From positions 1,502 to 65,501 of the forward strand of contig CALCQV010000167.1 in NCBI GenBank assembly GCA_937894795.1: a stretch of 64,000 bases of DNA. The letters are read 5' to 3'. The notes beneath the pieces are model-generated. The model worked only from the letters and a program-made list of their open reading frames with translations. It was not told where the DNA came from and did no database searches. Every line of letters starts with the position of its first letter. The stretch's first letter is position 1. Shown here in pieces: positions 1,067-59,739 of this stretch. The stretch is from an uncultured Bacteroidales bacterium. GTDB lineage: Bacteria; Bacteroidota; Bacteroidia; Bacteroidales; Lentimicrobiaceae. The position numbers were made by a program, and so were the translations under genes.

Positions 1067-1080
1067 GGGGAGGAACAGTG

Positions 1081-2874
1081 ATGGCAAAATATAAAATGCA
1101 TCTTCTGGTTTGCGGTGGCACTGCTTGTCATGCTTCTGAAAGCGAACGATTACTCGACACTCTGAAAACAATCATTGCCGATAAAGGCCTTGATAGTGAA
1201 GTACAGGTCATAGCAACCGGTTGCTTCGGTTTTTGTGAAAAAGGGCCTATTGTAAAGGTTATGCCCGACAATACTTTCTATACTCAGGTAACTCCTGATG
1301 ATGCCCGTGAAATCATTGAAGAACACATTATTAAAGGACGTAAAGTAAACCGCTTACTTTATCTGAATCCTGAAAGCAAAGAGCACGTTTCTGATTCAAA
1401 GCACATGGGCTTTTACAAGAAACAGCTTAGAATTGCTTTAAGAAACTGCGGTTTCATTGACCCTGAGAACATTGATGAGTATATTTCACGTGATGGATAT
1501 GAGGCACTTGCCAAGTGTTTGACTGAAATGACTCCTCAGCAGGTTATTGAGCTAATGAAGAAGTCAGGCTTAAGAGGCCGTGGCGGAGGAGGTTTCCCTA
1601 CCGGTTTAAAATGGGAGATTACCAGCAAATCAGTAAGTGACATTAAATATGTTGTTTGTAATGCCGACGAAGGAGACCCCGGTGCATTCATGGACCGCTC
1701 AATCCTGGAAGGTGACCCCCATTCAGTAATTGAAGCCATGGCTATATGCGGATATTGTATTGGTGCTTCAAATGGATTGGTTTATATCAGGGCTGAGTAT
1801 CCCTTAGCTATTGATCGTTTGAAAATTGCAATCAAACAGGCTCGTGAATACGGACTTCTTGGCAATGGAATTTTAGGTACCGGTTTCAATTTTGATATTG
1901 AACTCAGGTACGGTGCCGGCGCCTTTGTTTGCGGTGAGGAAACTGCCCTTATTCATTCAATGGAAGGTAAACGTGGTGAACCAACCATGAAACCTCCGTT
2001 CCCATCCGTTTCAGGGTATTTTGAAAAACCTACCAATGTAAATAATGTTGAAACATTTGCCAATGTTCCGGTTATCATCAATAAAGGTGCTGAATGGTAT
2101 AGCGCTATTGGTTCTGAGAAATCAAAGGGAACCAAGGTATTTGCCTTAGCAGGTAAAATCAATAACGTTGGTTTGATTGAAGTTCCAATGGGTACCACCC
2201 TACGCGAAGTTATTTATGAAATTGGCGGCGGTATCAGAAACGGCAAGAAATTTAAAGCCGTTCAAACCGGTGGCCCTTCAGGCGGATGTCTTACTGAGAA
2301 ACATCTTGACACACCTATAGATTACGACAACCTAATTGCAAGTGGCTCTATGATGGGCTCAGGTGGTATGATCGTTATGGATGAAGATGATTGTATGGTT
2401 TCTGTAGCCAAGTTCTACCTTGAGTTTACAGTTGAGGAATCATGCGGTAAATGTACTCCTTGTCGTATTGGCAACAAACGTCTGCATGAAATACTTGATA
2501 AACTCACAAAGGGTAATGGTACCATGGAAGACATTGACCGCCTGAAGAACCTGAGCAAGGTTATCAAGGACACCGCATTGTGTGGTTTAGGTCAGACTTC
2601 ACCAAATCCTGTATTATCAACTATTGATAATTTCCTTGATGAATATGTTGAGCATGTTACCGAAAAGAAATGCCGTGCAGGCCAATGTAAAGCGTTAATG
2701 CAATATACAATCATTCCTGACAATTGTGTTGGTTGTACTGCATGTGCCCGTAACTGCCCTGTTAACGCCATTTCAGGTGAACGCAAAGGTATACATACCA
2801 TCAATCAGGAAGTTTGCATCAAGTGTGGTGCCTGCCTAGAAAAATGTAAATTCAATGCTGTGGTAATTAAATAA
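1081..2874 (+). CDS. hydB: NuoF-like diaphorase subunit of an NAD-linked [FeFe]-hydrogenase (HydB/HndC)
   Basis: GLRGRGGGGFPTG, NADEGDPGAFMDR, GAFVCGEETAL, GGPSGG and ESCGKCTPCRIG motifs, an N-terminal Trx-like [2Fe-2S] domain and C-terminal 2x[4Fe-4S]. ATG 1081 chosen over GTG 1078. Confidence 0.93.
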   Translation: MAKYKMHLLVCGGTACHASESERLLDTLKTIIADKGLDSEVQVIATGCFGFCEKGPIVKVMPDNTFYTQVTPDDAREIIEEHIIKGRKVNRLLYLNPESKEHVSDSKHMGFYKKQLRIALRNCGFIDPENIDEYISRDGYEALAKCLTEMTPQQVIELMKKSGLRGRGGGGFPTGLKWEITSKSVSDIKYVVCNADEGDPGAFMDRSILEGDPHSVIEAMAICGYCIGASNGLVYIRAEYPLAIDRLKIAIKQAREYGLLGNGILGTGFNFDIELRYGAGAFVCGEETALIHSMEGKRGEPTMKPPFPSVSGYFEKPTNVNNVETFANVPVIINKGAEWYSAIGSEKSKGTKVFALAGKINNVGLIEVPMGTTLREVIYEIGGGIRNGKKFKAVQTGGPSGGCLTEKHLDTPIDYDNLIASGSMMGSGGMIVMDEDDCMVSVAKFYLEFTVEESCGKCTPCRIGNKRLHEILDKLTKGNGTMEDIDRLKNLSKVIKDTALCGLGQTSPNPVLSTIDNFLDEYVEHVTEKKCRAGQCKALMQYTIIPDNCVGCTACARNCPVNAISGERKGIHTINQEVCIKCGACLEKCKFNAVVIK

Positions 2875-2886
2875 TTTCAGACGATA

Positions 2887-4659
2887 ATGGAAACTATCAA
2901 AATAAATATTGACAATAAGATCGTTGAGGTTGAAAAAGGAACCACTATCCTTCAGGCTGCTAAAAAGTTCGGTATTCATATCCCTACTCTGTGCCACCTC
3001 CATTTGCACGATCTAAACATAGAAAATAAACCCGCCGGTTGCCGTATATGCGTTGTTGAAGTGGCAGGCAGAAAAAACCTTGCACCGGCATGCGTTACTG
3101 AATGTATGGACGGGATGGTTGTTAACACTCATAACATCAGAGTTCTGAATGCCCGTAAGACCGTGCTGGAACTTATCCTCTCTGACCACCCTACCGACTG
3201 CCTTATCTGTTCAAAGAACGGTAATTGTGAATTGCAGTCAATGGCGCAGGAATTCGGTGTTCGTGAAATACATTTTGAAGGTGAGAAATCTACCTACAGG
3301 GAAGATACATCACCGGCTATCATCCGTGATGTTGACAAATGTATCATGTGTCGCCGCTGCGAAATGATGTGTAATGAAGTACAAACAGTTGGCGTACTCT
3401 CAGCAGTAAACCGCGGATTCATGTCAGTTGTGGCTCCGGCTTTTGAAATGAATCTCGACCATAGTGTTTGTACTTATTGCGGACAGTGTGTTGCTGTTTG
3501 TCCTACCGGTGCATTAACAGAGGTTGATCATACCAATGCCGTAATCCGTGCTTTGGCAGATCCTGATAAAACGGTAATTGTACAAACTGCTCCTGCAGTA
3601 CGCGCTGCATTGGGTGAAGAATTCGGACTTGAGCCGGGCACATTGGTTACCGGTAAAATGGCTGCTGCCCTTCGCCGTTTGGGCTTCAACTATGTTTTTG
3701 ATACAGACTTTGCTGCCGACCTTACCATCATGGAAGAAGGTACTGAATTACTTGACAGGCTGAACCGTCATCTTAATGGCGATAAGAGTGTAGCTCTGCC
3801 AATCCTTACTTCATGCTGCCCGGGTTGGGTGAACTTCTTTGAACACCAGTTCCCTGAAATGCGTGACATCCCTTCAACAGCAAGAAGTCCACAGCAGATG
3901 TTCGGCGCCATAGCCAAAACATATTTCGCTGAAAAGCTTAATGTTAAACGTGAAAACCTGGTAGTGGTTTCTGTAATGCCTTGTCTGGCAAAGAAATTTG
4001 AATGCCAGAGAGATGAGTTTAAAACCAATGGTAATCCTGATGTTGACTACTCAATTTCAACCAGAGAGTTGGCTCACCTTATCAAGCAATTGAATATTAG
4101 CTTTAATGAACTTCCTGAAGAAGATTTTGATCATCCTCTTGGTGAATCAACAGGTGCAGCCGTAATATTCGGAACTACCGGTGGTGTTATTGAAGCTGCT
4201 GTAAGAACCGCTTATGAGGTACAGACAGGTAAGAAACTTCAGAAAATTGACTTCGAAGAACTTCGCGGTATGGAGTTTATACGTGAAGCAACCATTGATT
4301 TTGATGGACTGCCAATACGAATAGGCATTGCACACGGTTTAGGTAATGCCCGTAAGCTTCTGGAAGACATCAAAGCCGGCAAATCAGAATTCCATGCCAT
4401 TGAAATTATGGCTTGTCCGGGTGGTTGTATCGGTGGTGGTGGCCAGCCATTGCATCATGGCGATTCATCCATCATTAAAGCCCGCCAAAAAGCAATCTAT
4501 GCTGAAGATGCTTCTAAAACTATTCGTAAATCACACGAAAATCCCTACATTATCCAACTCTATAAGGAGTTCCTGGGTAAACCTTGTGGTGAATTGTCAC
4601 ATCACCTGCTTCATACTCATTATTTTGATAAGAGTAAGGAAATTAGTGTTGTAGAATAA
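2887..4659 (+). CDS. hydA: [FeFe]-hydrogenase catalytic subunit, group A3 (HydA/HndD)
   Basis: H-cluster motifs L1 TSCCPGW, L2 MPCLAKKFE and L3 EIMACPGGCIGGGGQP. N-terminal [2Fe-2S], His-ligated [4Fe-4S] (HPTDCLICSKNGNC) and 2x[4Fe-4S]. Confidence 0.97.
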   Translation: METIKINIDNKIVEVEKGTTILQAAKKFGIHIPTLCHLHLHDLNIENKPAGCRICVVEVAGRKNLAPACVTECMDGMVVNTHNIRVLNARKTVLELILSDHPTDCLICSKNGNCELQSMAQEFGVREIHFEGEKSTYREDTSPAIIRDVDKCIMCRRCEMMCNEVQTVGVLSAVNRGFMSVVAPAFEMNLDHSVCTYCGQCVAVCPTGALTEVDHTNAVIRALADPDKTVIVQTAPAVRAALGEEFGLEPGTLVTGKMAAALRRLGFNYVFDTDFAADLTIMEEGTELLDRLNRHLNGDKSVALPILTSCCPGWVNFFEHQFPEMRDIPSTARSPQQMFGAIAKTYFAEKLNVKRENLVVVSVMPCLAKKFECQRDEFKTNGNPDVDYSISTRELAHLIKQLNISFNELPEEDFDHPLGESTGAAVIFGTTGGVIEAAVRTAYEVQTGKKLQKIDFEELRGMEFIREATIDFDGLPIRIGIAHGLGNARKLLEDIKAGKSEFHAIEIMACPGGCIGGGGQPLHHGDSSIIKARQKAIYAEDASKTIRKSHENPYIIQLYKEFLGKPCGELSHHLLHTHYFDKSKEISVVE

Positions 4660-15242: not shown

Positions 15243-18053
15243 TCATTTGCTCCTAAGTCTGAGGGCATTACCTATTACAGATACTGAACTAAAACTCATG
15301 GCGACGGCTGCAATCATCGGGCTGAGCAGAATTCCAAAGAATGGGAATAATATGCCTGCCGCAACAGGTACACCCAGCACATTGTAAATAAAAGCAAAGA
15401 ACAGGTTCTGCTTTATATTTTTCATTACTTCGTGGCTTAACTTTTTAGCTCTGGCAATTCCATTCAAGTCGCCTTTAACCAATGTAATCTCGGCAGTCTG
15501 CATAGCTATGTCGGTTCCTGTGCCCATAGCTATTCCAATATTGGCCTGTGCAAGTGCCGGTGCATCATTGATACCATCACCTGCCATTGCTACCATGCTG
15601 CCATTCTGTTGCAGCTCTTTAATCTTGTTGAATTTATCGTCAGGCAGGCATTCAGCCTTAAAGTCCTTAATATTCAATTCATCGGCAACAGCCTTGGCTG
15701 ATAGTTCATTATCGCCCGTAAGCATAATTACCCTGACCCCCATATCGTGCAGTTGTTCCAATGCACGTCTGGAAGTACTTTTTATCTTGTCGGCCACACT
15801 CACCATGCCTTCAATCTTATTATCCACCAGCAGGTACATCACGGTCTGGCCTGCCCGTTGAAGGTGCTCTACTGTCAACCGGTCACTGTCGGTCAGTTCG
15901 GCCCCTGAGTCCTTTAAAAGCTTTGCATTACCCAATCTGATTTGTTGTGAGTTAGCCACCCCTTCTACACCTTTGCCGGTGATCGAAATAAAACTATCAA
16001 TAGGTAGCAGGCTGATCTTTTGCTCTTTAGCTCCCTTCACAATGGCTTCAGCAAGCGGATGCTCGCTATGTGCATCAACCGAAGCAGCCAACTGTAGTAT
16101 TTGGTCGGCTGAAATGCTGCCAAAAGTCCTGAACTCCTTAAGACTTGGCTTTCCCTCAGTAAGCGTACCCGTTTTATCAACAATGAGGGTGTCAATTTTA
16201 TTCATCTCTTCCATTGCGCGGGCGTCCTTAACCAGAATGCCCGACTGTGCCCCTCTGCCGGTACCAACCATTATTGACATGGGCGTTGCCAATCCAAGTG
16301 CACAGGGACAGGCAATGATAAGCACAGAAACAGCATTCACGAATGCATATACCAGTGAAGGTTCAGGTCCCCAGACAGCCCAAATGGCGAAAGTTGTCAA
16401 GGCTATGGCAATAATTATCTGTACAAAGTATTTGGCTATGGTATCAGCTATTCGTTGTATAGGTGCCCTGGAGCGTCCGGCTTCATTGACCATTTCTATG
16501 ATCCTGGCCAGCAATGTGTCTTTGCCTACTTTCTCGGCTTTCAGCACAAAACTGGTCTGCCCGTTTATGGTACCACCAATAACTTTATCGCCCTGCATCT
16601 TTTCAACCGGCATGGCCTCGCCGGTAATCATACTCTCATCTAAGGTTGCTTCACCTTGTGAGATAATACCATCAACAGGCACCTTCTCACCCGGTTTCAC
16701 TCTCAATAAATCACCTGCCATAACATGCTCCAGTGGAATTTCTTCTTCTGAACCATCACGTATAATTCTTGCTATCGGTGGAACCAGGTTCAACAGCGAC
16801 TTGATGGCTGTATTGGTTTTATTATGGGCCCTGAGCTCCAGTACCTGTCCCAGCAGCACTAACGTCAGAATAACGGCTGCCGATTCAAAGTACAAGTGCA
16901 CATTTCCATGCATATCTTTAAACTGATCGGGGAATATGGCGGGCATGAGAAGCGCTGCAACACTAAAAATATAGGCCGCACCCACTCCTATGGATATCAG
17001 AGTCCACATGTTGGGCGATCGACGTACCACTGAGCTGTATCCTCTCCTGAAGAACTGCCAGCCCGAATAAAATACAACCGGTGTAGTCAAAACGAAGGAT
17101 ACCCAATTCAATATGCCTCTGTTGGTCATTACAAACTCCTTTAAAAAAGGAATCATCTCCGACATGCCTATAAAAAACACAGGAATTGTCAGTACCACCG
17201 CAATCCAAAACTTGCGTCTCATATTAATATATGCCGTATCCTCTTCCTGTTCCGGCCCGGCAGTCATTGGCACGAGATCCATACCACAAATAGGACAATC
17301 GCCGGGGCCATCCCGCCTGATCTCGGGATGCATGGGACAGGTATAAACGGTGGTTGATTGGGTAAAACCCTCCTCCTTAACCAGATTCATCCCACAAACA
17401 GGACATTCGCCGGGCTTGTCGTAGGTTTTATCACCTTCACAATGCATAGGGCAATAATAACGCGGCCCACCCATCTTAACCTCTTTGAATGATGAGGCAG
17501 CGGTAGCAGTTTTTTTTGTGGCTTTAGCAGCATCAGGTGATAAAGCAACTTTCTTCCTGACAGGTATACCTCCCGGAAGATCTGCAGCTGATTTCAGGAA
17601 CATATTGCATACCGGACAACGGCCGGGAGCATCGTACGTCTTATCTCCCTCGCAGAACATAGGGCAATAATACACCTCCTTCTTTTTTACTGCATCATGC
17701 ATTTTAATTTCATTGGCAGGAATGAGAAACATACCACATACCGGACAAGAGCCCGGATCTCTGTAGGTTTTATCATCCTCACACTGCATGGGACAAGCAT
17801 ACCTCACCTGGTTAGAGGGAATTTCCCCGGATGAATCAGCTTTTATACCAGCCGGCTTCTCAGCAACCATGGTTAGGGCTGAAGGCTCATTAAAAGAGTG
17901 TTTGCCGGCGGAAGCATGTGTTGATTTAACTGTTGGCACTAAAAACATCCCACATACAGGGCACCTTCCCGGTTCATTGTAAACTTTATCACCCTCGCAA
18001 TGCATCGGGCAATACCAGGTAGTGGTTTCTTTATTATCTGACAAAGCTTTCAT
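15243..18053 (-). CDS. copA: Heavy-metal P1B-type ATPase, Cu+-type
   Basis: ITGE, IACPCALGLATP, DKTGTLT, SEHPL, TGDN, GDGINDAP, YN and AMSFSS motifs, plus five N-terminal (W/Y)xCPMx..GxCPxCxM repeats. Confidence 0.93.
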   Translation of the reverse strand: MKALSDNKETTTWYCPMHCEGDKVYNEPGRCPVCGMFLVPTVKSTHASAGKHSFNEPSALTMVAEKPAGIKADSSGEIPSNQVRYACPMQCEDDKTYRDPGSCPVCGMFLIPANEIKMHDAVKKKEVYYCPMFCEGDKTYDAPGRCPVCNMFLKSAADLPGGIPVRKKVALSPDAAKATKKTATAASSFKEVKMGGPRYYCPMHCEGDKTYDKPGECPVCGMNLVKEEGFTQSTTVYTCPMHPEIRRDGPGDCPICGMDLVPMTAGPEQEEDTAYINMRRKFWIAVVLTIPVFFIGMSEMIPFLKEFVMTNRGILNWVSFVLTTPVVFYSGWQFFRRGYSSVVRRSPNMWTLISIGVGAAYIFSVAALLMPAIFPDQFKDMHGNVHLYFESAAVILTLVLLGQVLELRAHNKTNTAIKSLLNLVPPIARIIRDGSEEEIPLEHVMAGDLLRVKPGEKVPVDGIISQGEATLDESMITGEAMPVEKMQGDKVIGGTINGQTSFVLKAEKVGKDTLLARIIEMVNEAGRSRAPIQRIADTIAKYFVQIIIAIALTTFAIWAVWGPEPSLVYAFVNAVSVLIIACPCALGLATPMSIMVGTGRGAQSGILVKDARAMEEMNKIDTLIVDKTGTLTEGKPSLKEFRTFGSISADQILQLAASVDAHSEHPLAEAIVKGAKEQKISLLPIDSFISITGKGVEGVANSQQIRLGNAKLLKDSGAELTDSDRLTVEHLQRAGQTVMYLLVDNKIEGMVSVADKIKSTSRRALEQLHDMGVRVIMLTGDNELSAKAVADELNIKDFKAECLPDDKFNKIKELQQNGSMVAMAGDGINDAPALAQANIGIAMGTGTDIAMQTAEITLVKGDLNGIARAKKLSHEVMKNIKQNLFFAFIYNVLGVPVAAGILFPFFGILLSPMIAAVAMSFSSVSVIGNALRLRSK

Positions 18054-49925: not shown

Positions 49926-50525
49926 ATGAAAAAAATAATCAACTTCATCGGACCTCCAGATAATTGGCGGTTGCCTGCTATTATTCTCACCGGTACCATT
50001 GTTGGGATCATAATTCTTCTGGTTTACTCATCGAGAGCCCACTCATACTTATCCGACAATCCGGAAACATGCATTAATTGTCATGTGATGTATCCGCAGT
50101 ATGCCACCTGGATGCATAGCAGCCATAGGGAAAAAGCAACCTGCAATGACTGTCATGTGCCGCACGACAATGTATTCCGAACATATTTCTTCAAAGCAAA
50201 AGATGGTCTGAGGCATGCCACAATATTTACTGCACGCGCTGAACCACAGGTAATACAGATAAAGCAGGCCGGTATAAATGTAGTACAGGAGAACTGTATT
50301 CGCTGCCATAAGGGACTGGTTGATTTTGTCAACATTGTCCAGGTAACCGGTGAGAACCATGAAGAAGGTGTTGGTTTCAGGTGTTGGGATTGCCATAGAG
50401 AAACGCCTCATGGCACCGTCAATAGCCTGGCAGCCACTCCCTATTCACTGGTGCCGCGCATGAAATCAATTGTACCCGATTGGATGCAGAGATTTGTGAA
50501 TGATAATACTGATGAAGCAAAATAA
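49926..50525 (+). CDS. nrfH: Cytochrome c nitrite reductase small subunit
   Basis: N-terminal TM and four CxxCH motifs (CINCH, CNDCH, CIRCH, CWDCH). Confidence 0.96.
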   Translation: MKKIINFIGPPDNWRLPAIILTGTIVGIIILLVYSSRAHSYLSDNPETCINCHVMYPQYATWMHSSHREKATCNDCHVPHDNVFRTYFFKAKDGLRHATIFTARAEPQVIQIKQAGINVVQENCIRCHKGLVDFVNIVQVTGENHEEGVGFRCWDCHRETPHGTVNSLAATPYSLVPRMKSIVPDWMQRFVNDNTDEAK

Positions 50526-50554: not shown

Positions 50555-52033
50555 ATGAAACCGGTATCAGAAATTACAAAAAGAAAACCTTGGGTAGCCT
50601 GGTTGATCTTTCTTGGCACAGTGGTAATAGTATTTATCCTTGGGCTCCTGGCCTCCTCAATCATTGAAAGAAGAAGTGAATCAAAGGTCTACTTCCAGAT
50701 GGTAAGTGAAATTCCAGAATGGGAACCACGGAATGAAGTATGGGGCAGGAACTTCCCCCGCGAGTATGAATCATATGAGAGTACACTTGACACCAGCTTC
50801 CTTAGCAAGTATGGAGGCTCAGGTACCCGTGACTACCTGGAGGAACATCCTGAAATGGTGGTTATGTGGGCAGGTTATGCATTCTCACGTGAATACAAAC
50901 AAGCAAGAGGACACTACTATGCCATCAATGATATCAGGCAGACTCTCCGCACTGATGTACCCCAGCCGTCAACCTGCTGGACATGCAAAAGCCCTGATGT
51001 GCCCCGTTTGATGAATCAGATGGGAGTTGAGAATTTCTATAAAGGTAAGTGGACAGATCTTGGTTCAGAAGTAGTCAATAATATAGGATGTCAGGACTGC
51101 CATGATCCCAAAACCATGAACCTGCGCATTACCCGTCCCGCCCTGATTGAAGCATACCAGCGCATGGGCAAGGACATCAACAAGGCAACACACCAGGAAA
51201 TGAGGTCGCTGGTTTGTGCACAATGCCATGTTGAATATTACTTCAAGGGAGAAAACAAATATTTGACTTTCCCATGGGATAATGGATTCACTGTTGAAGC
51301 CATGGAAGCCTATTACGATAGTGTAAAGCATGTTGATTTTGTCCATGCTCTAAGTAAAGCTCCAATGTTGAAGGGGCAGCATCCTGATTTTGAACAGTAT
51401 ACTACGGGCGTGCACTTCGACAGGGGTGTTGCCTGTGCCGATTGCCACATGCCATATAAGCGTGATGGTGGTATGAAATATACCGATCATAAGATTCAAA
51501 GCCCATTGGCAAACATATCAGGCTCTTGTGTTGTGTGTCACCGCGAAGGGGAAGAGAAGCTGATGGAGAATGTAGTCAGCCGCCAGAACAAGATTTATGA
51601 ACTCCGCCGCATAGCTGAGAAGAACATTGCCAGGCTCCATATTGAAGCAAAAACCGCCTGGGACAATGGCGCCACCGAACAGGAAATGGAACCCGTACTT
51701 ACCCTTATTCGTCATGCACAATGGCGTTGGGATTATGTTGCCGCCGGCAATTCCATGGGATTCCACACTCCGGCTGAAGCATTGCGTATCTTAGGCACAT
51801 CCATCCAAAAAGCTCAGGAAGGAAGATTGTTGCTTAACAGTATTCTCATTAGTCACGGCGTTAAAACACCTATTCAGATGCCCGATCTCTCAAACCGTGA
51901 AAAGGCTCAGGCTTTTATCGGTCTTGATATGCCGGCACTCCATAAGAGCAAAAATGAATTTATCAATACGGTGCTGCCTGAATGGACAAAGAAAGCCGTT
52001 GAACGGGAAGGCCAAATGATACAGATACAATAG
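50555..52033 (+). CDS. nrfA: Ammonia-forming cytochrome c nitrite reductase
   Basis: CWTCK (Lys-ligated active-site heme) plus CQDCH, CAQCHVEYYF, CADCH and CVVCH; KGQHPDFE. Confidence 0.97.
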   Translation: MKPVSEITKRKPWVAWLIFLGTVVIVFILGLLASSIIERRSESKVYFQMVSEIPEWEPRNEVWGRNFPREYESYESTLDTSFLSKYGGSGTRDYLEEHPEMVVMWAGYAFSREYKQARGHYYAINDIRQTLRTDVPQPSTCWTCKSPDVPRLMNQMGVENFYKGKWTDLGSEVVNNIGCQDCHDPKTMNLRITRPALIEAYQRMGKDINKATHQEMRSLVCAQCHVEYYFKGENKYLTFPWDNGFTVEAMEAYYDSVKHVDFVHALSKAPMLKGQHPDFEQYTTGVHFDRGVACADCHMPYKRDGGMKYTDHKIQSPLANISGSCVVCHREGEEKLMENVVSRQNKIYELRRIAEKNIARLHIEAKTAWDNGATEQEMEPVLTLIRHAQWRWDYVAAGNSMGFHTPAEALRILGTSIQKAQEGRLLLNSILISHGVKTPIQMPDLSNREKAQAFIGLDMPALHKSKNEFINTVLPEWTKKAVEREGQMIQIQ

Positions 52034-52053: not shown

Positions 52054-52090
52054 ACAAGCCTGAAAAATTGAACTTTTCAGGCTTGTTTTT
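52054..52090 (+). terminator. nrfHA terminator
   Basis: 13-bp stem ACAAGCCTGAAAA/TTTTCAGGCTTGT followed by TTTT. Confidence 0.8.
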
Positions 52091-52118: not shown

Positions 52119-53123
52119 ATGCGCTGCATTTTAAGAAAAGAAACCGACCCTTATTTCAACCTCGCAGCTGAAGAGTATGTATTCAAACACTTCGCTGATG
52201 ATACCTTCATGCTTTGGCGGAATGATCCATCGGTAATTGTTGGTAAGCATCAGAATACATTCGCTGAAATCAATCATCAGTTTGTAAATGAAAAGGGCAT
52301 CAAGGTAGTACGACGAATTTCAGGCGGTGGCACTGTTTACCATGACCACGGCAATCTGAACTTCACCTTCACATCACGGGCAGAGCATAACCAACTGGTT
52401 GACTTCAACAAATACAACCGGGTAATTGTCAGTGTACTCGGCAAATTAGGCATTGATGTATTGACCGGGCCACGCAACAGCTTATATATTGGCGGTAAGA
52501 AGATTTCAGGTAATGCAGAACACGTTTATAAGGACAAAGTACTTCATCATGGCACACTATTATTCAACAGCAATATTGAAAACCTGCAAAATGCCATCAA
52601 ACCTGCAAACCTGAGCTATGATGATAAAGCCGTAAAATCAATAAACAGTCAGGTGGTCAATATCACCGATTCACTCAAGACATCACTGACTATTGAAGAA
52701 TTTGCCGAATTTATTATTGCCGAAATGCTGAAGATGGATTCTGAAGCCCACTTGTATGCATTCACCCCAGAGGATATCAGGCAAATCAATCTTTTAAAAG
52801 AAGAGAAATACACTACCTGGGAATGGAACTATGGCTACTCACCCATTTTCAACTTATCCACAACATTCCAAACAGGAAATCAACCGTTTAAAGTAAGCAT
52901 AACAGTCAGGAACGGAACAATAGATTACATTGATAGCAGTAATCATGAGCCTATTGCAGAAGAGTACCATAAACTCATCAACATACTGATGTCCACACGG
53001 TTAAAAGAAACTGACATAGCAAGCAAATTGAAACAACACTATTCAGAAGAACAAATACAAAGTGTCATACAATCGTTGTTTGTCGGCGATAACGCTGAAC
53101 ATTTGAATAATAACTATGTTTAA
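52119..53123 (+). CDS. lplA: Lipoate-protein ligase A
   Basis: PYFNLAAEEY, VRRISGGGTVYHD, KISGNAE and LHHGTLLF motifs. Start moved to ATG 52119. Confidence 0.95.
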   Translation: MRCILRKETDPYFNLAAEEYVFKHFADDTFMLWRNDPSVIVGKHQNTFAEINHQFVNEKGIKVVRRISGGGTVYHDHGNLNFTFTSRAEHNQLVDFNKYNRVIVSVLGKLGIDVLTGPRNSLYIGGKKISGNAEHVYKDKVLHHGTLLFNSNIENLQNAIKPANLSYDDKAVKSINSQVVNITDSLKTSLTIEEFAEFIIAEMLKMDSEAHLYAFTPEDIRQINLLKEEKYTTWEWNYGYSPIFNLSTTFQTGNQPFKVSITVRNGTIDYIDSSNHEPIAEEYHKLINILMSTRLKETDIASKLKQHYSEEQIQSVIQSLFVGDNAEHLNNNYV

Positions 53124-53144
53124 AAGCAAACAAAACGACAAAAC

Positions 53145-53957
53145 ATGAAGCAGGCACAAGCGGTATTTGATAAACTATGGTCAGATTATATCACACAAAA
53201 TCCTTCAGCCAAACAGGTATATGATCTCTTCATTGGCAGTGGCGAAGAAGTATTGAATGACCATATAGCATTCAGAACATTCAATGATTCCAGGGTTAAT
53301 ATTGATGTAATGGCCCAGGAATTCATCAATGCAGGATATATTTACAAAGGTTCGTACAACTTTGAAGAAAAGAAACTGAATGCACGGCACTATGAGCACA
53401 AGGAGTTCAGGGATGCACCACGGGTATTCATAAGTGAATTAAGAACCGAAGAATTCTCACCATTCCTTCAGGAGACGGTAAAGAACATTCTCAACAACAT
53501 ACCCGCAGAGCATGTTGGCAAAGGAGATCTAATATTTAAGGGAAACCTATGGGGAACACCATCGTACGAAGTTTATAATAAGCTGAGGGATGAGTCGGAA
53601 TATGCCGCATGGGTTTATGTATACGGTTTCAGAGCCAATCACTTCACAGTGAGCATTAACGGCCTGAAGAAACTAACCGAGGTGGAGCAGGTTAACCGGT
53701 TTGTTGAAGAGCACGGATTCCGCATCAATGATTCGGGTGGCAGGGTAAAAGGTACACCTCAGGAGTTACTGGAACAATCAAGTACCATGGCAGGCAAGTT
53801 ACCTGTTAAGTTTCAGGAAGGCATTTATGAAATTCCCTCTTGTTATTACGAATTCGCCAAGAGATACCCTGATACGGATGGTAACTTATATTCAGGATTT
53901 ATTGCCAAATCCGCTGATAAGATATTTGAGAGTACCAACTACTACAAAGGAAATTAA
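53145..53957 (+). CDS. DUF1338 domain protein (HglS/YdcJ-like 2-oxoadipate dioxygenase/decarboxylase family)
   Basis: NDHIAFRTF, PRVFISEL, SEYAAW, ANHFTVS, LLEQSSTMA and YYEFAKR motifs, with a putative His/His/Glu metal triad. Confidence 0.85.
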   Translation: MKQAQAVFDKLWSDYITQNPSAKQVYDLFIGSGEEVLNDHIAFRTFNDSRVNIDVMAQEFINAGYIYKGSYNFEEKKLNARHYEHKEFRDAPRVFISELRTEEFSPFLQETVKNILNNIPAEHVGKGDLIFKGNLWGTPSYEVYNKLRDESEYAAWVYVYGFRANHFTVSINGLKKLTEVEQVNRFVEEHGFRINDSGGRVKGTPQELLEQSSTMAGKLPVKFQEGIYEIPSCYYEFAKRYPDTDGNLYSGFIAKSADKIFESTNYYKGN

Positions 53958-53982
53958 CATTTGCCACAAAGTATTTAAATTG

Positions 53983-54019
53983 ACCGCATTCCCGCGAATA
54001 GGGCAATGCGGTTTTTTTC
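53983..54019 (+). terminator. Intrinsic terminator after the DUF1338 gene
   Basis: ACCGCATT(CCC)..(GGGC)AATGCGGT followed by a T-tract. Confidence 0.75.
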
Positions 54020-54130
54020 TGATGCAGATAAAATGATAACTTTGACGCTACTTTGAGACTACAATTAAGCTGAATTGGATTTGCTTTAGCGCTTATTTGA
54101 AATTACAGTTAATAATCACAACAGGCTATA

Positions 54131-57049
54131 ATGATACCGATCAATAAATGGAATGAGTTACGTGAAAAACTTAAAGGTGAGCTCTTTACCGGCGAAACCA
54201 TGCGCATACTCTATTCCACTGATGCCTCAGCCTATCGTGAAATTCCACTGGCAGTAGTTGTACCAAAAGATGAAAGCGACATAGTTCAGCTTATCAGGTT
54301 TGCCCATAAAATGAAAGTCACCCTCATACCGCGTACCGCGGGTACTTCATTGGCCGGACAGGTTGTTGGCAACGGAATAGTGGTTGACGTATCCAGGTAT
54401 ATGAACCGGATACTCCAGGTAAACGCTGAGGAGAGATGGGTGAGGGTGCAGCCGGGGGTGGTGCTAGATGAACTGAATAAAGCATTGGCTCCAACAGGAT
54501 TATTCTTCGGACCTGAAACATCCACTTCCAACAGGTGTATGATTGGCGGCATGGTAGGCAACAATGCATGTGGTGCCCACTCATTGGTATACGGCAGCAC
54601 ACGTGACCATACACTGGAAATTACAGCCCTGTTAAGTGATGCCACTAAAGTTACTTTCAGGTCGCTTACTAGTGATGAGTTTAAGGTTAAATGCTATCAG
54701 GATGATCTTGAAGGCCGGATATACAATAAAATAAGTGATATACTCCGTGATGCGAATAACCGCGAAGAAATCAGGAACAACTACCCTGATCCCCGGCTTG
54801 AAAGAAGAAACACCGGTTATGCACTTGATTTGCTATTGGATACTCAGCCTTTTCAGGAAAAGGGAACCCCCTTCAACCTGTGCAAACTGTTGGCAGGCTC
54901 AGAAGGAACACTGGCATTCTCCACAGAAATCAAGTTAAACCTTGTACCCATCCCTCCCAAAGAAAAAGCGCTTGTCTGTATTCATTGCAATTCATTGGAA
55001 GAAGCATTCAAAGCCAACCTCATAGCCTTGAAGCACAACCCGGTAGCGGTTGAACTTATTGATCACTTCATCATTGAGCGCACCGTTGACAACATAGAGC
55101 AACGTAAAAACAGGTTTTTCATCAAGGGAGAGCCTGCAGCAATACTGGTGGTTGAATTTGCCCTTCACACCATAGAAGCCATTGATGAAGCAGCCAGGCT
55201 GTTGGTGCAGGATATGCAGACAGCAGGATATGGATACCACTACCCGGTAGTAAAAGGTAATGATATCAGCAGGGTCTGGGCACTTAGAAAAGCAGGACTT
55301 GGCTTGCTGTCAAATATCAAAGGTGACAAAAAGCCGGTTGCTGTAATTGAAGATACAGCAGTATTGCCTGAACTGCTGCCCGCCTATATGGAAGAATTCG
55401 CAGCCATGCTTCAACAGTATGACCTCAACTGCGTTTACTATGCACATATTGCCACCGGTGAACTCCACCTGAGGCCGGTACTTGATTTGAAAGACCCGCA
55501 TGATGTTGAACTCTTTCATACCGTAGCATTGGAAACCGCAAAAATTGTAAAGAAATACAGGGGTTCCTTAAGCGGTGAACATGGCGATGGCCGCCTGCGC
55601 GGTGAATTTATACCCCTGATGCTGGGAAATCATGTTTACGGATTGCTAAAAGAGATAAAGCACAGCTTTGACCCAAACGGAATATTCAACAACCGGAAGA
55701 TCACTGATACTCCGGTTATGAACACAGGCCTTCGATACGAGTCAGGACAGAAGACAAGGGAAATAGAGACCGTATTTGATTTTTCTGACAGTATGGGTAT
55801 CGTAAGAGCCGCTGAACAATGCAATGGCTCAGGAGATTGTCGTAAATCAGAGCAGTTTGCCGGTACCATGTGCCCCAGCTACCAAGCTACACGTGATGAA
55901 AAGGACACTACCAGGGCAAGGGCAAACATACTCAGGGAAATGCTTACCCGCAGCAATAAGGATAATCCCTTTGATCACAAGGAGATATTAGAGGTCATGG
56001 ACTTATGTATCTCATGCAAGGGATGTAAGTCAGAATGTCCATCGAATGTTGATATTGCAAAATATAAAGCCGAGTTTCTGCAGCACTATTACGATGCAAA
56101 CGGCACACCACTACGTTCACTCCTGATAGCCAATATCACGGCCTTCAACAAACTCGGCAGCCTTCTCCCCTCACTTTATAATGGATTGCTCAGCAATAAG
56201 CTATTTTCAGGCTTGCTAAAGAAATTCATTGGATTTGCACCCGGGCGGGAACTTCCTCTTCTGCAGAAGCAAACACTAACAGGCTGGTTTAGGAAATACG
56301 GTAAAGAGCAGCCTGATGGAAGGACAGTTTACCTTTTTGCCGATGAGTTCACCAATTACAATGATGTGAATATTGGCATCAAAGCAATTATGGTACTCAA
56401 TAAACTCGGTTACAAGGTAGAGATACCAAAGCATAAAGAGAGTGGACGCACCTTCCTCAGCAAGGGGTTGTTGCGAAAAGCCCAAAAACTGGCCGTCGGG
56501 AATGTGCAGTTGCTTTCAGATGTAGTGACTGCCGAATCCCCTCTGATTGGAATAGAGCCATCAGCCATACTCACCTTCAGGGATGAGTATATTGATCTCA
56601 CCAAGGGGGAATTAAAGGAGAAAGCAAGACTGCTGGCCGCCAATACATTCCTCTTTGATGACTTCATCATGCGTGAAGTCAATGCCGGAAGAATAGATAG
56701 CTCCGGCTTCACCGGAAGCACCCGGCAGATAAAACTGCACGGCCATTGTCATCAGAAAGCACTGGCATCCACTGCATCAACAAAACAGATGCTCAGTCTG
56801 CCGGCCGGTTACCGGGTTGAAGAGATCAGGTCAGGATGCTGTGGCATGGCCGGTTCCTTTGGCTTCGAAAAGGAGCATTACGAGGTATCTATGAAGATTG
56901 GGGAACTGGTATTATTCCCTGAAGTAAGAAGATCGGAACAGGAGGTCACCATTGCCGCTCCGGGTACCAGTTGTCGGCAACAGATTAAGGACGGCACAGG
57001 CAAATTGGCATTGCATCCTATTGAAATACTCTGGGAATCATTGCTCTAA
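54131..57049 (+). CDS. FAD-binding, Fe-S-binding oxidoreductase (YdiJ-like 2-hydroxyacid dehydrogenase)
   Basis: RTAGTSLAGQ, GGMVGNNACG, GEHGDG, CNGSGDC, CISCKGCKSECP, HGHCHQK and GCCGMAG motifs. Confidence 0.9.
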   Translation: MIPINKWNELREKLKGELFTGETMRILYSTDASAYREIPLAVVVPKDESDIVQLIRFAHKMKVTLIPRTAGTSLAGQVVGNGIVVDVSRYMNRILQVNAEERWVRVQPGVVLDELNKALAPTGLFFGPETSTSNRCMIGGMVGNNACGAHSLVYGSTRDHTLEITALLSDATKVTFRSLTSDEFKVKCYQDDLEGRIYNKISDILRDANNREEIRNNYPDPRLERRNTGYALDLLLDTQPFQEKGTPFNLCKLLAGSEGTLAFSTEIKLNLVPIPPKEKALVCIHCNSLEEAFKANLIALKHNPVAVELIDHFIIERTVDNIEQRKNRFFIKGEPAAILVVEFALHTIEAIDEAARLLVQDMQTAGYGYHYPVVKGNDISRVWALRKAGLGLLSNIKGDKKPVAVIEDTAVLPELLPAYMEEFAAMLQQYDLNCVYYAHIATGELHLRPVLDLKDPHDVELFHTVALETAKIVKKYRGSLSGEHGDGRLRGEFIPLMLGNHVYGLLKEIKHSFDPNGIFNNRKITDTPVMNTGLRYESGQKTREIETVFDFSDSMGIVRAAEQCNGSGDCRKSEQFAGTMCPSYQATRDEKDTTRARANILREMLTRSNKDNPFDHKEILEVMDLCISCKGCKSECPSNVDIAKYKAEFLQHYYDANGTPLRSLLIANITAFNKLGSLLPSLYNGLLSNKLFSGLLKKFIGFAPGRELPLLQKQTLTGWFRKYGKEQPDGRTVYLFADEFTNYNDVNIGIKAIMVLNKLGYKVEIPKHKESGRTFLSKGLLRKAQKLAVGNVQLLSDVVTAESPLIGIEPSAILTFRDEYIDLTKGELKEKARLLAANTFLFDDFIMREVNAGRIDSSGFTGSTRQIKLHGHCHQKALASTASTKQMLSLPAGYRVEEIRSGCCGMAGSFGFEKEHYEVSMKIGELVLFPEVRRSEQEVTIAAPGTSCRQQIKDGTGKLALHPIEILWESLL

Positions 57050-57981: not shown

Positions 57982-59739
57982 ATGATAAGCACATCTTTTG
58001 TAAAACCAACGTCAGTCGAAGAAAGCAACTTCCTTCAAACAGAGACCATACAGAATATTCAGAGGGTATTTGGCAATACTGTTAAAGCTTCCGTACTTAT
58101 TACATCCTCTGAAGGGACTCCCCTTACCAAACCTGATCTGTTGCCACCTTTTCAATCCAATGGAAGCACAACAGGTAAGTTGTGGAATTGCTGTGAATCA
58201 ACCATATCAAAGCTTTATCAAACACCCTCTGAAGTAAACACGCCAACTTTCATCACCTGCGAATGTGGTCATGAAATATCTCTTATCAGGATGAAACTGG
58301 TTAACCAACAATTGTTTAACCTCATACTGATTCAGCTGACCGATAAGCATAACAACAAGCAAAAATTCATCGCCAAAGCGATTGAAAATAATTATAACAC
58401 CCAACAGGCAGAGGAAGCGTATAAGCTGACAGAGGTTATTGATTACGACAAGTTTACATACTCCTGTTCAATGCTTTTCCATCAAACGGAGTTATTCAAC
58501 ACCCTGCTGCAAAACAGCGTGCAGGTTACACGGCTTAAAAACGAAGAAGAAAGAAGTATTCATGAGGAAGCCCTGATAAAGGCTAAAAATGAAGCAGAGG
58601 AATCAAGCAGACTGAAGTCTTCACTGCTTGCCAATATGAGCCACGAGTTAAGGACACCCATGACCGGTATACTCGGCTTTTCAGAAATACTGCATGATGA
58701 ACTGGACGACAACAGGCTTAAAAGTATGGCCTCAACCATATACAAGTCGGCCAATCGCCTCATGACAACATTGAATTCCATTATGGACCTGTCGGCCATA
58801 GAATCCAACAGGACAAACCTGACGTTGAAGCCGGTAAATATCAAGATTATATTTATGAATCTCTTGCGCAATGCCTACACCATTGCGAGCGACAAGGGCT
58901 TATATATAAGAACAGCACTCCCGCCCAGCATCAATGTAATAGCTGATGACAAATTGTTGGGGCAGTTGCTGCACCATCTTATTGACAATGCCATCAAATT
59001 CACTATTGACGGGGGAATATCCATCAGTGCCTATGCCGGATTGCGTGATACATCAGATGTAGTTATAAAAATAAGCGACACAGGTATTGGAATTGCACCA
59101 CAGCACCATAAGCTCATCTTTGAAGAGTTCAGGCAGGTAAGTGAAGGATTATCACGCACCTTTGAAGGTAGCGGTCTGGGTCTTTCACTGGTAATGAAAA
59201 TATCGAAGTTGTTGAATGCCAGGGTGTGGGTGGAAAGTGTACCCGAAAAAGGCTCAGACTTTTATGTAGCTTTACCATCGGCTGCCGTTGTCAATGAAGA
59301 CATCACCACCCCTGTTGAAAAAGAAGAGCCCATCAGCACTATCAGGTTGGGCAGAGGCAATGTGCCGGAGGTACTGATAGTAGAAGACAATGAAATTAAC
59401 AGAAGGTTGGCGGCATTGTATCTGCGTGAGATTTGCAATATCGATATGGCTGAAAATGGCTACATAGCCATGAACAAGATTAAATCAAAGAAGTATGATG
59501 CCGTGCTTATGGATATCAACCTTGGTGCCGGCCCCAATGGAATACATATTGCACAGGATATCAGAGCCATAGACCATTACAAGGACATCCCGATTATAGC
59601 AGTTACCGGTTATACCATGCAGGGCGACAGGGAGAAGCTTCTTGCCAATGGCTGTTCACACTATGTGGCAAAGCCTTACGACAAGAAGACGCTGATAAAA
59701 CTATTCTCAGGTATATTATACAATCAGAAGGCCGGTTAG
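57982..59739 (+). CDS. Cytoplasmic hybrid histidine kinase/response regulator with a PocR-like N-terminus
   Basis: H box MSHELRTP, N box DNAIKFT, DTGIG, GSGLGL and receiver (VEDN, MDINL, AVTG, KP). No TM segments. The PocR call is inference. Confidence 0.9.
   Translation: MISTSFVKPTSVEESNFLQTETIQNIQRVFGNTVKASVLITSSEGTPLTKPDLLPPFQSNGSTTGKLWNCCESTISKLYQTPSEVNTPTFITCECGHEISLIRMKLVNQQLFNLILIQLTDKHNNKQKFIAKAIENNYNTQQAEEAYKLTEVIDYDKFTYSCSMLFHQTELFNTLLQNSVQVTRLKNEEERSIHEEALIKAKNEAEESSRLKSSLLANMSHELRTPMTGILGFSEILHDELDDNRLKSMASTIYKSANRLMTTLNSIMDLSAIESNRTNLTLKPVNIKIIFMNLLRNAYTIASDKGLYIRTALPPSINVIADDKLLGQLLHHLIDNAIKFTIDGGISISAYAGLRDTSDVVIKISDTGIGIAPQHHKLIFEEFRQVSEGLSRTFEGSGLGLSLVMKISKLLNARVWVESVPEKGSDFYVALPSAAVVNEDITTPVEKEEPISTIRLGRGNVPEVLIVEDNEINRRLAALYLREICNIDMAENGYIAMNKIKSKKYDAVLMDINLGAGPNGIHIAQDIRAIDHYKDIPIIAVTGYTMQGDREKLLANGCSHYVAKPYDKKTLIKLFSGILYNQKAG

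Follow-up and report, generated by a model that had tools for sequence, protein, structure and literature searches.

DUF1338 (HglS-family) enzymes convert 2-oxoadipate to 2-hydroxyglutarate, as described for rice FLO7, Arabidopsis At1g07040, Escherichia coli YdcJ and Pseudomonas putida HglS (Thompson et al., PMC7286885). HglS takes up O2 in a 1:1 ratio with 2-oxoadipate and was strictly specific for this substrate when tested. The metal is bound by a His/His/Glu triad, the arginine four residues past the first histidine (HglS Arg74, FLO7 Arg64) holds the distal carboxylate, and the crystal structure of FLO7 has 2-oxoadipate bound (PMC7286885). The role of the dehydrogenase that follows HglS in P. 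putida, acting on D-2-hydroxyglutarate (D-2HG), is filled by PP_4493, and the YdiJ proteins of E. coli and Pantoea are strict D-2HG dehydrogenases, the E. coli enzyme acting in serine-linked D-2HG recycling (PMC9504171). In this study, we have explored a stretch of 64,000 nucleotides (the window) from contig CALCQV010000167.1 of an uncultured Bacteroidales bacterium, in which a lipoate-protein ligase gene (lplA), a DUF1338 gene and a gene for a YdiJ-like oxidoreductase follow one another on the forward strand. We consider it rather probable that the products of this cluster would lead 2-oxoadipate through D-2HG to 2-oxoglutarate, thereby closing, as in plants, the lysine breakdown that is opened by lysine-ketoglutarate reductase (LKR) and saccharopine dehydrogenase (SDH).

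The three genes are lplA (52119-53123; ATG start, 334 aa), the DUF1338 gene of the short FLO7/3LHO subfamily (53145-53957; 270 aa, PF07063) and the gene for the YdiJ-family FAD/Fe-S oxidoreductase (54131-57049; 972 aa), and the list of open reading frames in the window, read together with the sequence, gives each of them as one intact frame. Exactly 21 nt lie between the lplA stop and the DUF1338 start. A bulged hairpin followed by a U7 tract, likely an intrinsic terminator as judged by folding and by reading the sequence, occupies positions 53982-54018 of the forward strand between the DUF1338 gene and ydiJ. Its predicted stability is -18.3 kcal/mol (z = -3.6, with 0 of 200 shuffles equally stable), UUUUUUU follows the stem, and the consensus terminator scan overlooked it because the stem is bulged. 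The original prediction had described a 21-nt gap and a 972-aa gene on the same strand past a terminator, a layout with which the reading frames, the sequence and the folding all agree. The genome (3.32 Mb in 168 contigs, 96% complete) has one copy each of the DUF1338 gene and the YdiJ-like gene.

In the family profile scan, the 270-aa protein matched PF07063 (HGLS) with 106.9 bits (cut-off 25). It also matched PDB 3LHO (E 3e-84) and rice FLO7 (6W1K; E 2e-37), and close homologues bear Lentimicrobium or Bacteroidales names. Residues H40, R44, H166 and E236 are invariant across an alignment of 16 DUF1338 homologues. In the alignment with FLO7 and 3LHO, the two histidines and the glutamate fall on the blocks DHxxFRTF, NH and EF(A)xR, and R44 (in NDHIAFRTF) aligns with the substrate arginine of FLO7, Arg64. 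By these alignments the short DUF1338 subfamily is the FLO7 subfamily, and the window protein is a predicted Fe(II)/O2-dependent 2-oxoadipate dioxygenase/decarboxylase giving D-2HG. It shares with rice FLO7, Arabidopsis At1g07040 and Shewanella frigidimarina 3LHO the short subfamily, the His/His/Glu triad and the H-x3-R arginine, and LKR/SDH-type lysine catabolism comes before it as it does in the plant pathway. Unlike plant FLO7, the window protein, whose activity is predicted, is bacterial and cytosolic and has no transit peptide, and its gene stands beside lplA and a YdiJ-type dehydrogenase, whereas plants use a mitochondrial-type D-2HG dehydrogenase. Like P. putida HglS (PP_5260) and E. 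coli YdcJ it belongs to PF07063, and the reaction predicted for it is theirs (2-oxoadipate + O2 to D-2HG + CO2). However, it has only 270 aa against a profile of 386 positions, of which its best stretch covers about positions 173-282; FLO7 and HglS themselves are about 15% identical, and the Val402/Ser403 loop of HglS is missing in the short subfamily. In P. putida, hglS is not reported beside ydiJ in the accessible part of the source paper, whereas in Bacteroidales the adjacency is a conserved feature.

The 972-aa protein combines a FAD_binding_4 domain, a FAD-oxidase_C domain, a 4Fe-4S dicluster (Fer4_17) and a GlpC-like C-terminus (E 9e-64). BLASTP aligned it with E. coli YdiJ (b1687) colinearly from end to end, at 31% identity over 1027 columns (E 7e-152), and YdiJ (NF049975) was its best NCBIfam match with 663.3 bits, the next being GlpC with 216 bits. 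A Pfam search of its last 372 aa gave no CCG domain at a threshold as loose as E 0.01, and the similarity of this part to GlpC is drawn from the NCBIfam match and from a CCG-type motif, GCCGMAG, which the alignment with E. coli YdiJ places near the C-terminus. The order of a GlcD-like FAD domain, a 4Fe-4S dicluster and a GlpC-like CCG C-terminus is the same as in the YdiJ proteins of E. coli and Pantoea and in PP_4493 of P. putida, and we regard the protein as a predicted D-2HG dehydrogenase. A strict preference for D-2HG over D-lactate and glycolate would find indirect support in the conserved position of its gene next to HglS. The genomic settings differ, the gene being linked to lplA in Bacteroidales and adjoining menI in E. 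coli.

To place the cluster in a wider frame, we used 80 loci from a scan of GTDB species genomes, analysed by tblastn and clustering of reading frames; all are labelled as Bacteroidales, Bacteroidota or a member taxon, save one labelled "bacterium". The identity of the DUF1338 proteins at these loci to the one in the window lies at 58-85%. Directly 5' of DUF1338 and on the same strand, lplA was found in 45 of 74 assessable loci; a YdiJ-like gene lies at most three genes 3' in 39 of 56, directly adjacent in 20 of these, and both partners are present at 27 of 54 loci. The median gaps are 38 and 65 nt, and several gaps between DUF1338 and ydiJ measure only -4 to +5 nt. The flanks vary widely (nrfHA, folP, typA, aconitase-family genes and others), and because the same gene order recurs despite them, the adjacency is not a matter of chance. 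Conservation of the adjacency, on which the original prediction had made its module depend, is thus borne out. The genes that intervene between DUF1338 and ydiJ at some loci encode a secreted protein of about 440 aa without a Pfam match, or outer-membrane-like and AHSA1/SRPBCC proteins, and these gave no metabolic hint. The pairing of DUF1338 with a YdiJ-like gene recurs in another order of the phylum (L126).

The distribution of the two genes over 401 Bacteroidales genomes qualifies the idea of a clustered two-step module: the pairing put forward originally is strongly conserved, but it is not dedicated. DUF1338 was found in 97 genomes, whereas YdiJ-like orthologues (at least 59% identity) occur in 270, among them 96 of the 97 with DUF1338 and 174 without it, so that the YdiJ-like protein has a role of its own. 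It is the older and more general component, to which HglS is an accessory add-on. Among 20 sampled genomes without DUF1338, lplA lies directly 5' of ydiJ in six, twice as nrfHA-lplA-ydiJ, the order of the window. Remnants of DUF1338 persist at two loci: upstream of ydiJ at L110 9520-9693, where residues 7-40 are joined to residues 243-268, and between lplA and ydiJ at L104 8881-8952, where 24 N-terminal residues are left. It follows from these relics, together with the lplA-ydiJ pairs, that DUF1338 was lost repeatedly out of an lplA-DUF1338-ydiJ arrangement, and the relics are evidence that the loss went by internal deletion. A fusion of DUF1338 and ydiJ, suggested by frames of 1283 and 1286 aa (G136, G256), was rejected, as a TGA stop and a 30-nt in-frame gap rule it out. 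At L092 5281-5313 (the same contig as L024), the two genes share a frame with TGA and 30 nt between them, and this had been reported as a 1286-aa frame.

HglS and YdiJ have been published before, and so have neighbourhoods from other phyla where DUF1338 lies beside "glycolate dehydrogenases". Thompson et al. (2019; bioRxiv 10.1101/450254) report such neighbours in Actinobacteria, Alpha- and Betaproteobacteria and Cyanobacteria, which is the same pairing of HglS with a GlcD-type FAD dehydrogenase. The preprint describes no Bacteroidetes context and no link to lplA, and the partner in our loci is the long YdiJ fusion type. In the literature searched, we found no description of the Bacteroidales lplA-DUF1338-ydiJ cluster or of its lplA link, in keeping with what had been supposed at the outset.

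Upstream steps of lysine catabolism are encoded elsewhere in the genome. A split LKR (C124:22576-23973) matches the LKR domain of human AASS over its full length (E 1e-80), the SDH (C124:23970-25289) matches Lys9/AASS-SDH (E 1e-85), and there is an overlap of 4 nt between their genes. By homology, the genome thus encodes an animal/plant-type split LKR and SDH of the saccharopine pathway. Among the steps of this route (LKR, SDH, aminoadipate semialdehyde (AASA) dehydrogenase, aminotransferase, HglS and D-2HG dehydrogenase), genes could be assigned here to LKR, SDH, HglS and, with the YdiJ-like protein, the last. Over the 401 genomes, Fisher tests that ignore kinship gave an association of DUF1338 with LKR-like genes both for any match (94/97 genomes with DUF1338 versus 140/304 without; odds ratio 36.7, p 1e-22) and for strong orthologues only (57/97 versus 72/304; odds ratio 4.6, p 4e-10). 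With the same disregard of kinship, piperideine-6-carboxylate (P6C)/AASA dehydrogenase (NF050084) was found in 59/97 versus 54/304 (odds ratio 7.2, p 6e-15). Outside Bacteroidales, short DUF1338 proteins occur in 12 of 350 Bacteroidota genomes, and at four of these 12 loci (L120, L115, L124 and L125) P6C dehydrogenase directly flanks DUF1338. The clusters span 6203-10715 in L120 and 7608-10016 in L115, and the two dehydrogenases that were scored reach 765 and 826 bits, respectively (cut-off 730); PDB matches of the L120 enzyme include ALDH7A1. An SDH/lysine dehydrogenase-like gene is present in two of the four loci (L120, L124), and a LysR-family regulator, divergently transcribed, is annotated next to the L120 cluster. 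One of the 12 loci has a flanking YdiJ-like gene and another a shorter FAD oxidase. The P6C dehydrogenase neighbours elsewhere in the phylum provide independent genomic evidence that this subfamily works in lysine catabolism. The lysine catabolism of the original prediction is therefore supported by LKR and SDH in the genome and by lysine-catabolic neighbours elsewhere, and weakened by the missing P6C/AASA dehydrogenase, to which we return below. A homoaconitase route to 2-oxoadipate was considered as well, as an aconitase-family gene (c4) flanks 13 loci; the best homologue in the window's genome has 27% identity and this candidate was rejected.

An O2-dependent enzyme had appeared puzzling in a presumed anaerobe. 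The genome encodes a cytochrome bd (CydA match, E 2e-161), subunit I of an aa3-type cytochrome c oxidase (CtaD; TIGR02891, 675 bits, cut-off 670.75), a second E2, and SucA and SucB of 2-oxoglutarate dehydrogenase, each of which passes its cut-off. The organism is, judged by its genes, facultative or microaerobic, and with both oxidases and 2-oxoglutarate dehydrogenase encoded, an O2-dependent HglS is not surprising; the puzzle thus dissolves. Nor does O2-sensitive hydrogenase metabolism stand beside the DUF1338 gene as had been stated, the hydrogenase genes being 48 kb away at 1078-4659. There, a NuoF-like HydB (598 aa) adjoins a [FeFe]-hydrogenase HydA (590 aa) in a bifurcating-type arrangement, and the genome combines this anaerobic machinery and NrfHA with the aerobic aa3 and bd oxidases. 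Outside the window, the bd genes (C59:4917-7705) and the aa3 oxidase cluster (C59:10919-17250) are about 6 kb apart, and a heme-copper family protein of about 740 aa (C32:37765-39987), which has no NCBIfam match, may be a quinol nitric oxide reductase.

Taken together, the most likely course of the pathway, in which all enzymatic steps are drawn from homology and genomic context, would be the following. Lysine would be converted to aminoadipate semialdehyde through the split LKR and SDH, and the semialdehyde would be oxidised and transaminated to 2-oxoadipate. The DUF1338 enzyme, with Fe(II) and O2, would turn 2-oxoadipate into D-2HG and CO2, and the YdiJ-like flavo-iron-sulfur enzyme would oxidise D-2HG to 2-oxoglutarate, its electrons probably passing to the quinone pool. 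The latter enzyme probably also recycles D-2HG from other sources, as in E. coli. LplA, for its part, would serve SucB and the second E2.

The place of lplA in the cluster calls for separate comment. The window protein matched TIGR00545 with 327.9 bits (equivalog cut-off 280) and the LplA/LipB-type domain PF21948 with 209 bits. As no lipA was found in this 96% complete assembly, ligation of scavenged lipoate by LplA is the only lipoylation route detected; a search of 23 genomes from the same genus likewise failed to find lipA in 13 of them. The gene had at first been rationalised through the lipoylation of 2-oxoacid dehydrogenases. This rationale fails in its simple form: lplA adjoins the ydiJ locus even without DUF1338, and its retention there is not explained simply by 2-oxoadipate needing a lipoylated dehydrogenase. 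The linkage of lplA is to the ydiJ locus as such. We doubt that it betrays a so far overlooked functional connection of lipoate salvage with D-2HG/2-oxoacid metabolism in Bacteroidales. One form of such a connection may be that HglS and YdiJ make up a lipoate-independent bypass, sparing or protecting the lipoyl-dependent 2-oxoglutarate/2-oxoadipate dehydrogenase; in another, the HdrD/GlpC-like CCG domain of the YdiJ-like protein may communicate with protein-bound lipoamide. A second lplA paralogue, cut by the contig end, lies outside the window (C70:1-626). Compared with the lplA that lies in the cluster in many other genomes, it reaches 69-79% identity in the closest loci, and the window lplA 48-57%; the C70 copy being the nearer one, the lplA beside DUF1338 here is the divergent copy.

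Several points weigh against a lysine-derived 2-oxoadipate pathway, beginning with the co-occurrence tests, which are uncorrected for phylogeny over the 401 genomes. The 663.3 bits of the 972-aa protein fall below the NF049975 equivalog cut-off of 1350. In addition, DUF1338 and ydiJ are parted by a terminator here and by one or two unrelated genes at other loci, so that strict co-transcription is not general. Both points would suit a conserved gene order without a pathway, in which the YdiJ-like protein does housekeeping as a D-2-hydroxyacid dehydrogenase and DUF1338 merely sits inside an old lplA-ydiJ block, its product being handled elsewhere. The housekeeping task could be the repair of D-2HG from SerA-type enzymes or that of a D-lactate dehydrogenase of the Dld-II type; the Shewanella Dld-II, reported by Pinchuk et al. 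(2009), has the same architecture. The 174 genomes with a YdiJ-like gene and no DUF1338, the six of 20 in which lplA and ydiJ are neighbours without it, and the serine-linked recycling role of E. coli YdiJ (PMC9504171) point the same way. Still, we judge this account unlikely, since the YdiJ-like gene is kept in all but one of the 97 genomes with DUF1338, DUF1338 stands just 5' of it far above chance and at times within a few nucleotides, the pairing is found again in the order represented by L126, and "glycolate dehydrogenase" pairings are published for other phyla. Moreover, housekeeping and pathway roles can coexist. As for a chance juxtaposition without functional meaning, the terminator between DUF1338 and ydiJ in the window would speak for it, but the order recurs where the flanks differ and the DUF1338 protein has no more than 58-66% identity to that of the window, and this explanation is effectively refuted.

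A further objection concerns the chemistry. The assayed members of the short DUF1338 subfamily are plant proteins and not bacterial ones of 270 aa, and P6C/AASA dehydrogenase is absent from this genome (96% complete, 168 contigs), where the only aldehyde dehydrogenase is a pyrroline-5-carboxylate dehydrogenase (C81:2240-3910; TIGR01236, 769 bits). This leaves a gap in the route to 2-oxoadipate, and the gap is common to 38 of the 97 genomes with DUF1338; the order-wide sample includes four genomes from the same genus, and three of them do carry the enzyme. The gap may come from the assembly or from a true loss of the gene, or a promiscuous enzyme may close it. Combined with the anaerobic machinery of the genome ([FeFe]-hydrogenase, NrfHA), these points would allow the short Bacteroidales proteins to act on another 2-oxo-dicarboxylate or by an O2-independent chemistry, in which case the cluster would not be a 2-oxoadipate module. 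The original prediction had likewise entertained a different chemistry for the short subfamily. We find this improbable, given that the subfamily contains FLO7, which binds 2-oxoadipate in the crystal and converts it, that the metal triad and the arginine for the distal carboxylate are invariant, and that the tested HglS is strictly specific for 2-oxoadipate (PMC7286885); lysine-catabolic neighbours in other Bacteroidota and the encoded O2 reductases argue against it as well. It is also conceivable that the three genes work together, in a cell auxotrophic for lipoate, on lipoyl-dependent 2-oxoacid metabolism, for example through a 2-oxoadipate bypass when lipoylation of 2-oxoglutarate dehydrogenase is limiting, or through contact of the CCG domain of the YdiJ-like protein with protein-bound lipoamide. 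The position of lplA (directly 5' in 45 of 74 loci, and beside ydiJ in DUF1338-negative genomes), the failure to find lipA here and in more than half of the same-genus genomes searched (13/23), the two lplA paralogues with SucAB present, and the CCG motif in the YdiJ-like C-terminus would all fit. But such a unit has no precedent, D-2HG oxidation with lipoamide as acceptor would be uphill by our own estimate from standard potentials, lplA is missing at many loci, and the adjacency may simply reflect co-regulation of 2-oxoglutarate-related functions; we hold it to be very improbable.

If the route from lysine through 2-oxoadipate and D-2HG to 2-oxoglutarate is indeed used, many environmental Bacteroidales would end lysine catabolism in the plant manner and not via glutaryl-CoA. 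Since this route would be O2-dependent, the DUF1338 gene could serve as a useful genomic marker of (micro)aerobic capacity in supposed anaerobes, and its repeated deletion from the space between lplA and ydiJ would be a record of adaptation to strict anoxia. With the predicted D-2HG dehydrogenase, the YdiJ family as defined by experiment would gain a highly conserved clade from Bacteroidales, and the linkage of lplA with ydiJ is apparently undescribed.

The flanks of the cluster provide some further observations. Immediately 5' of lplA lie nrfH (49926-50525) and nrfA (50555-52033) on the forward strand, the genes of an ammonia-forming nitrite reductase, and the nrfHA-lplA synteny is retained in several lineages (e.g. 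L101, L106), including DUF1338-negative ones. An intrinsic terminator with a 13-bp stem and a T-run follows nrfA on the same strand (52054-52086) and forms the upstream boundary of the lplA-DUF1338 unit; an alternative lplA frame with a TTG start at 52068 would begin within it. On the other side, 3' of ydiJ and tcdA, a hybrid histidine kinase with an N-terminal PocR sensory domain is encoded at 57982-59739, and a kinase of this kind is kept at that position in few loci only. Further away in the window, a P-type heavy-metal ATPase with five tandem heavy-metal-binding (HMBD) domains is encoded on the reverse strand at 15243-18053.

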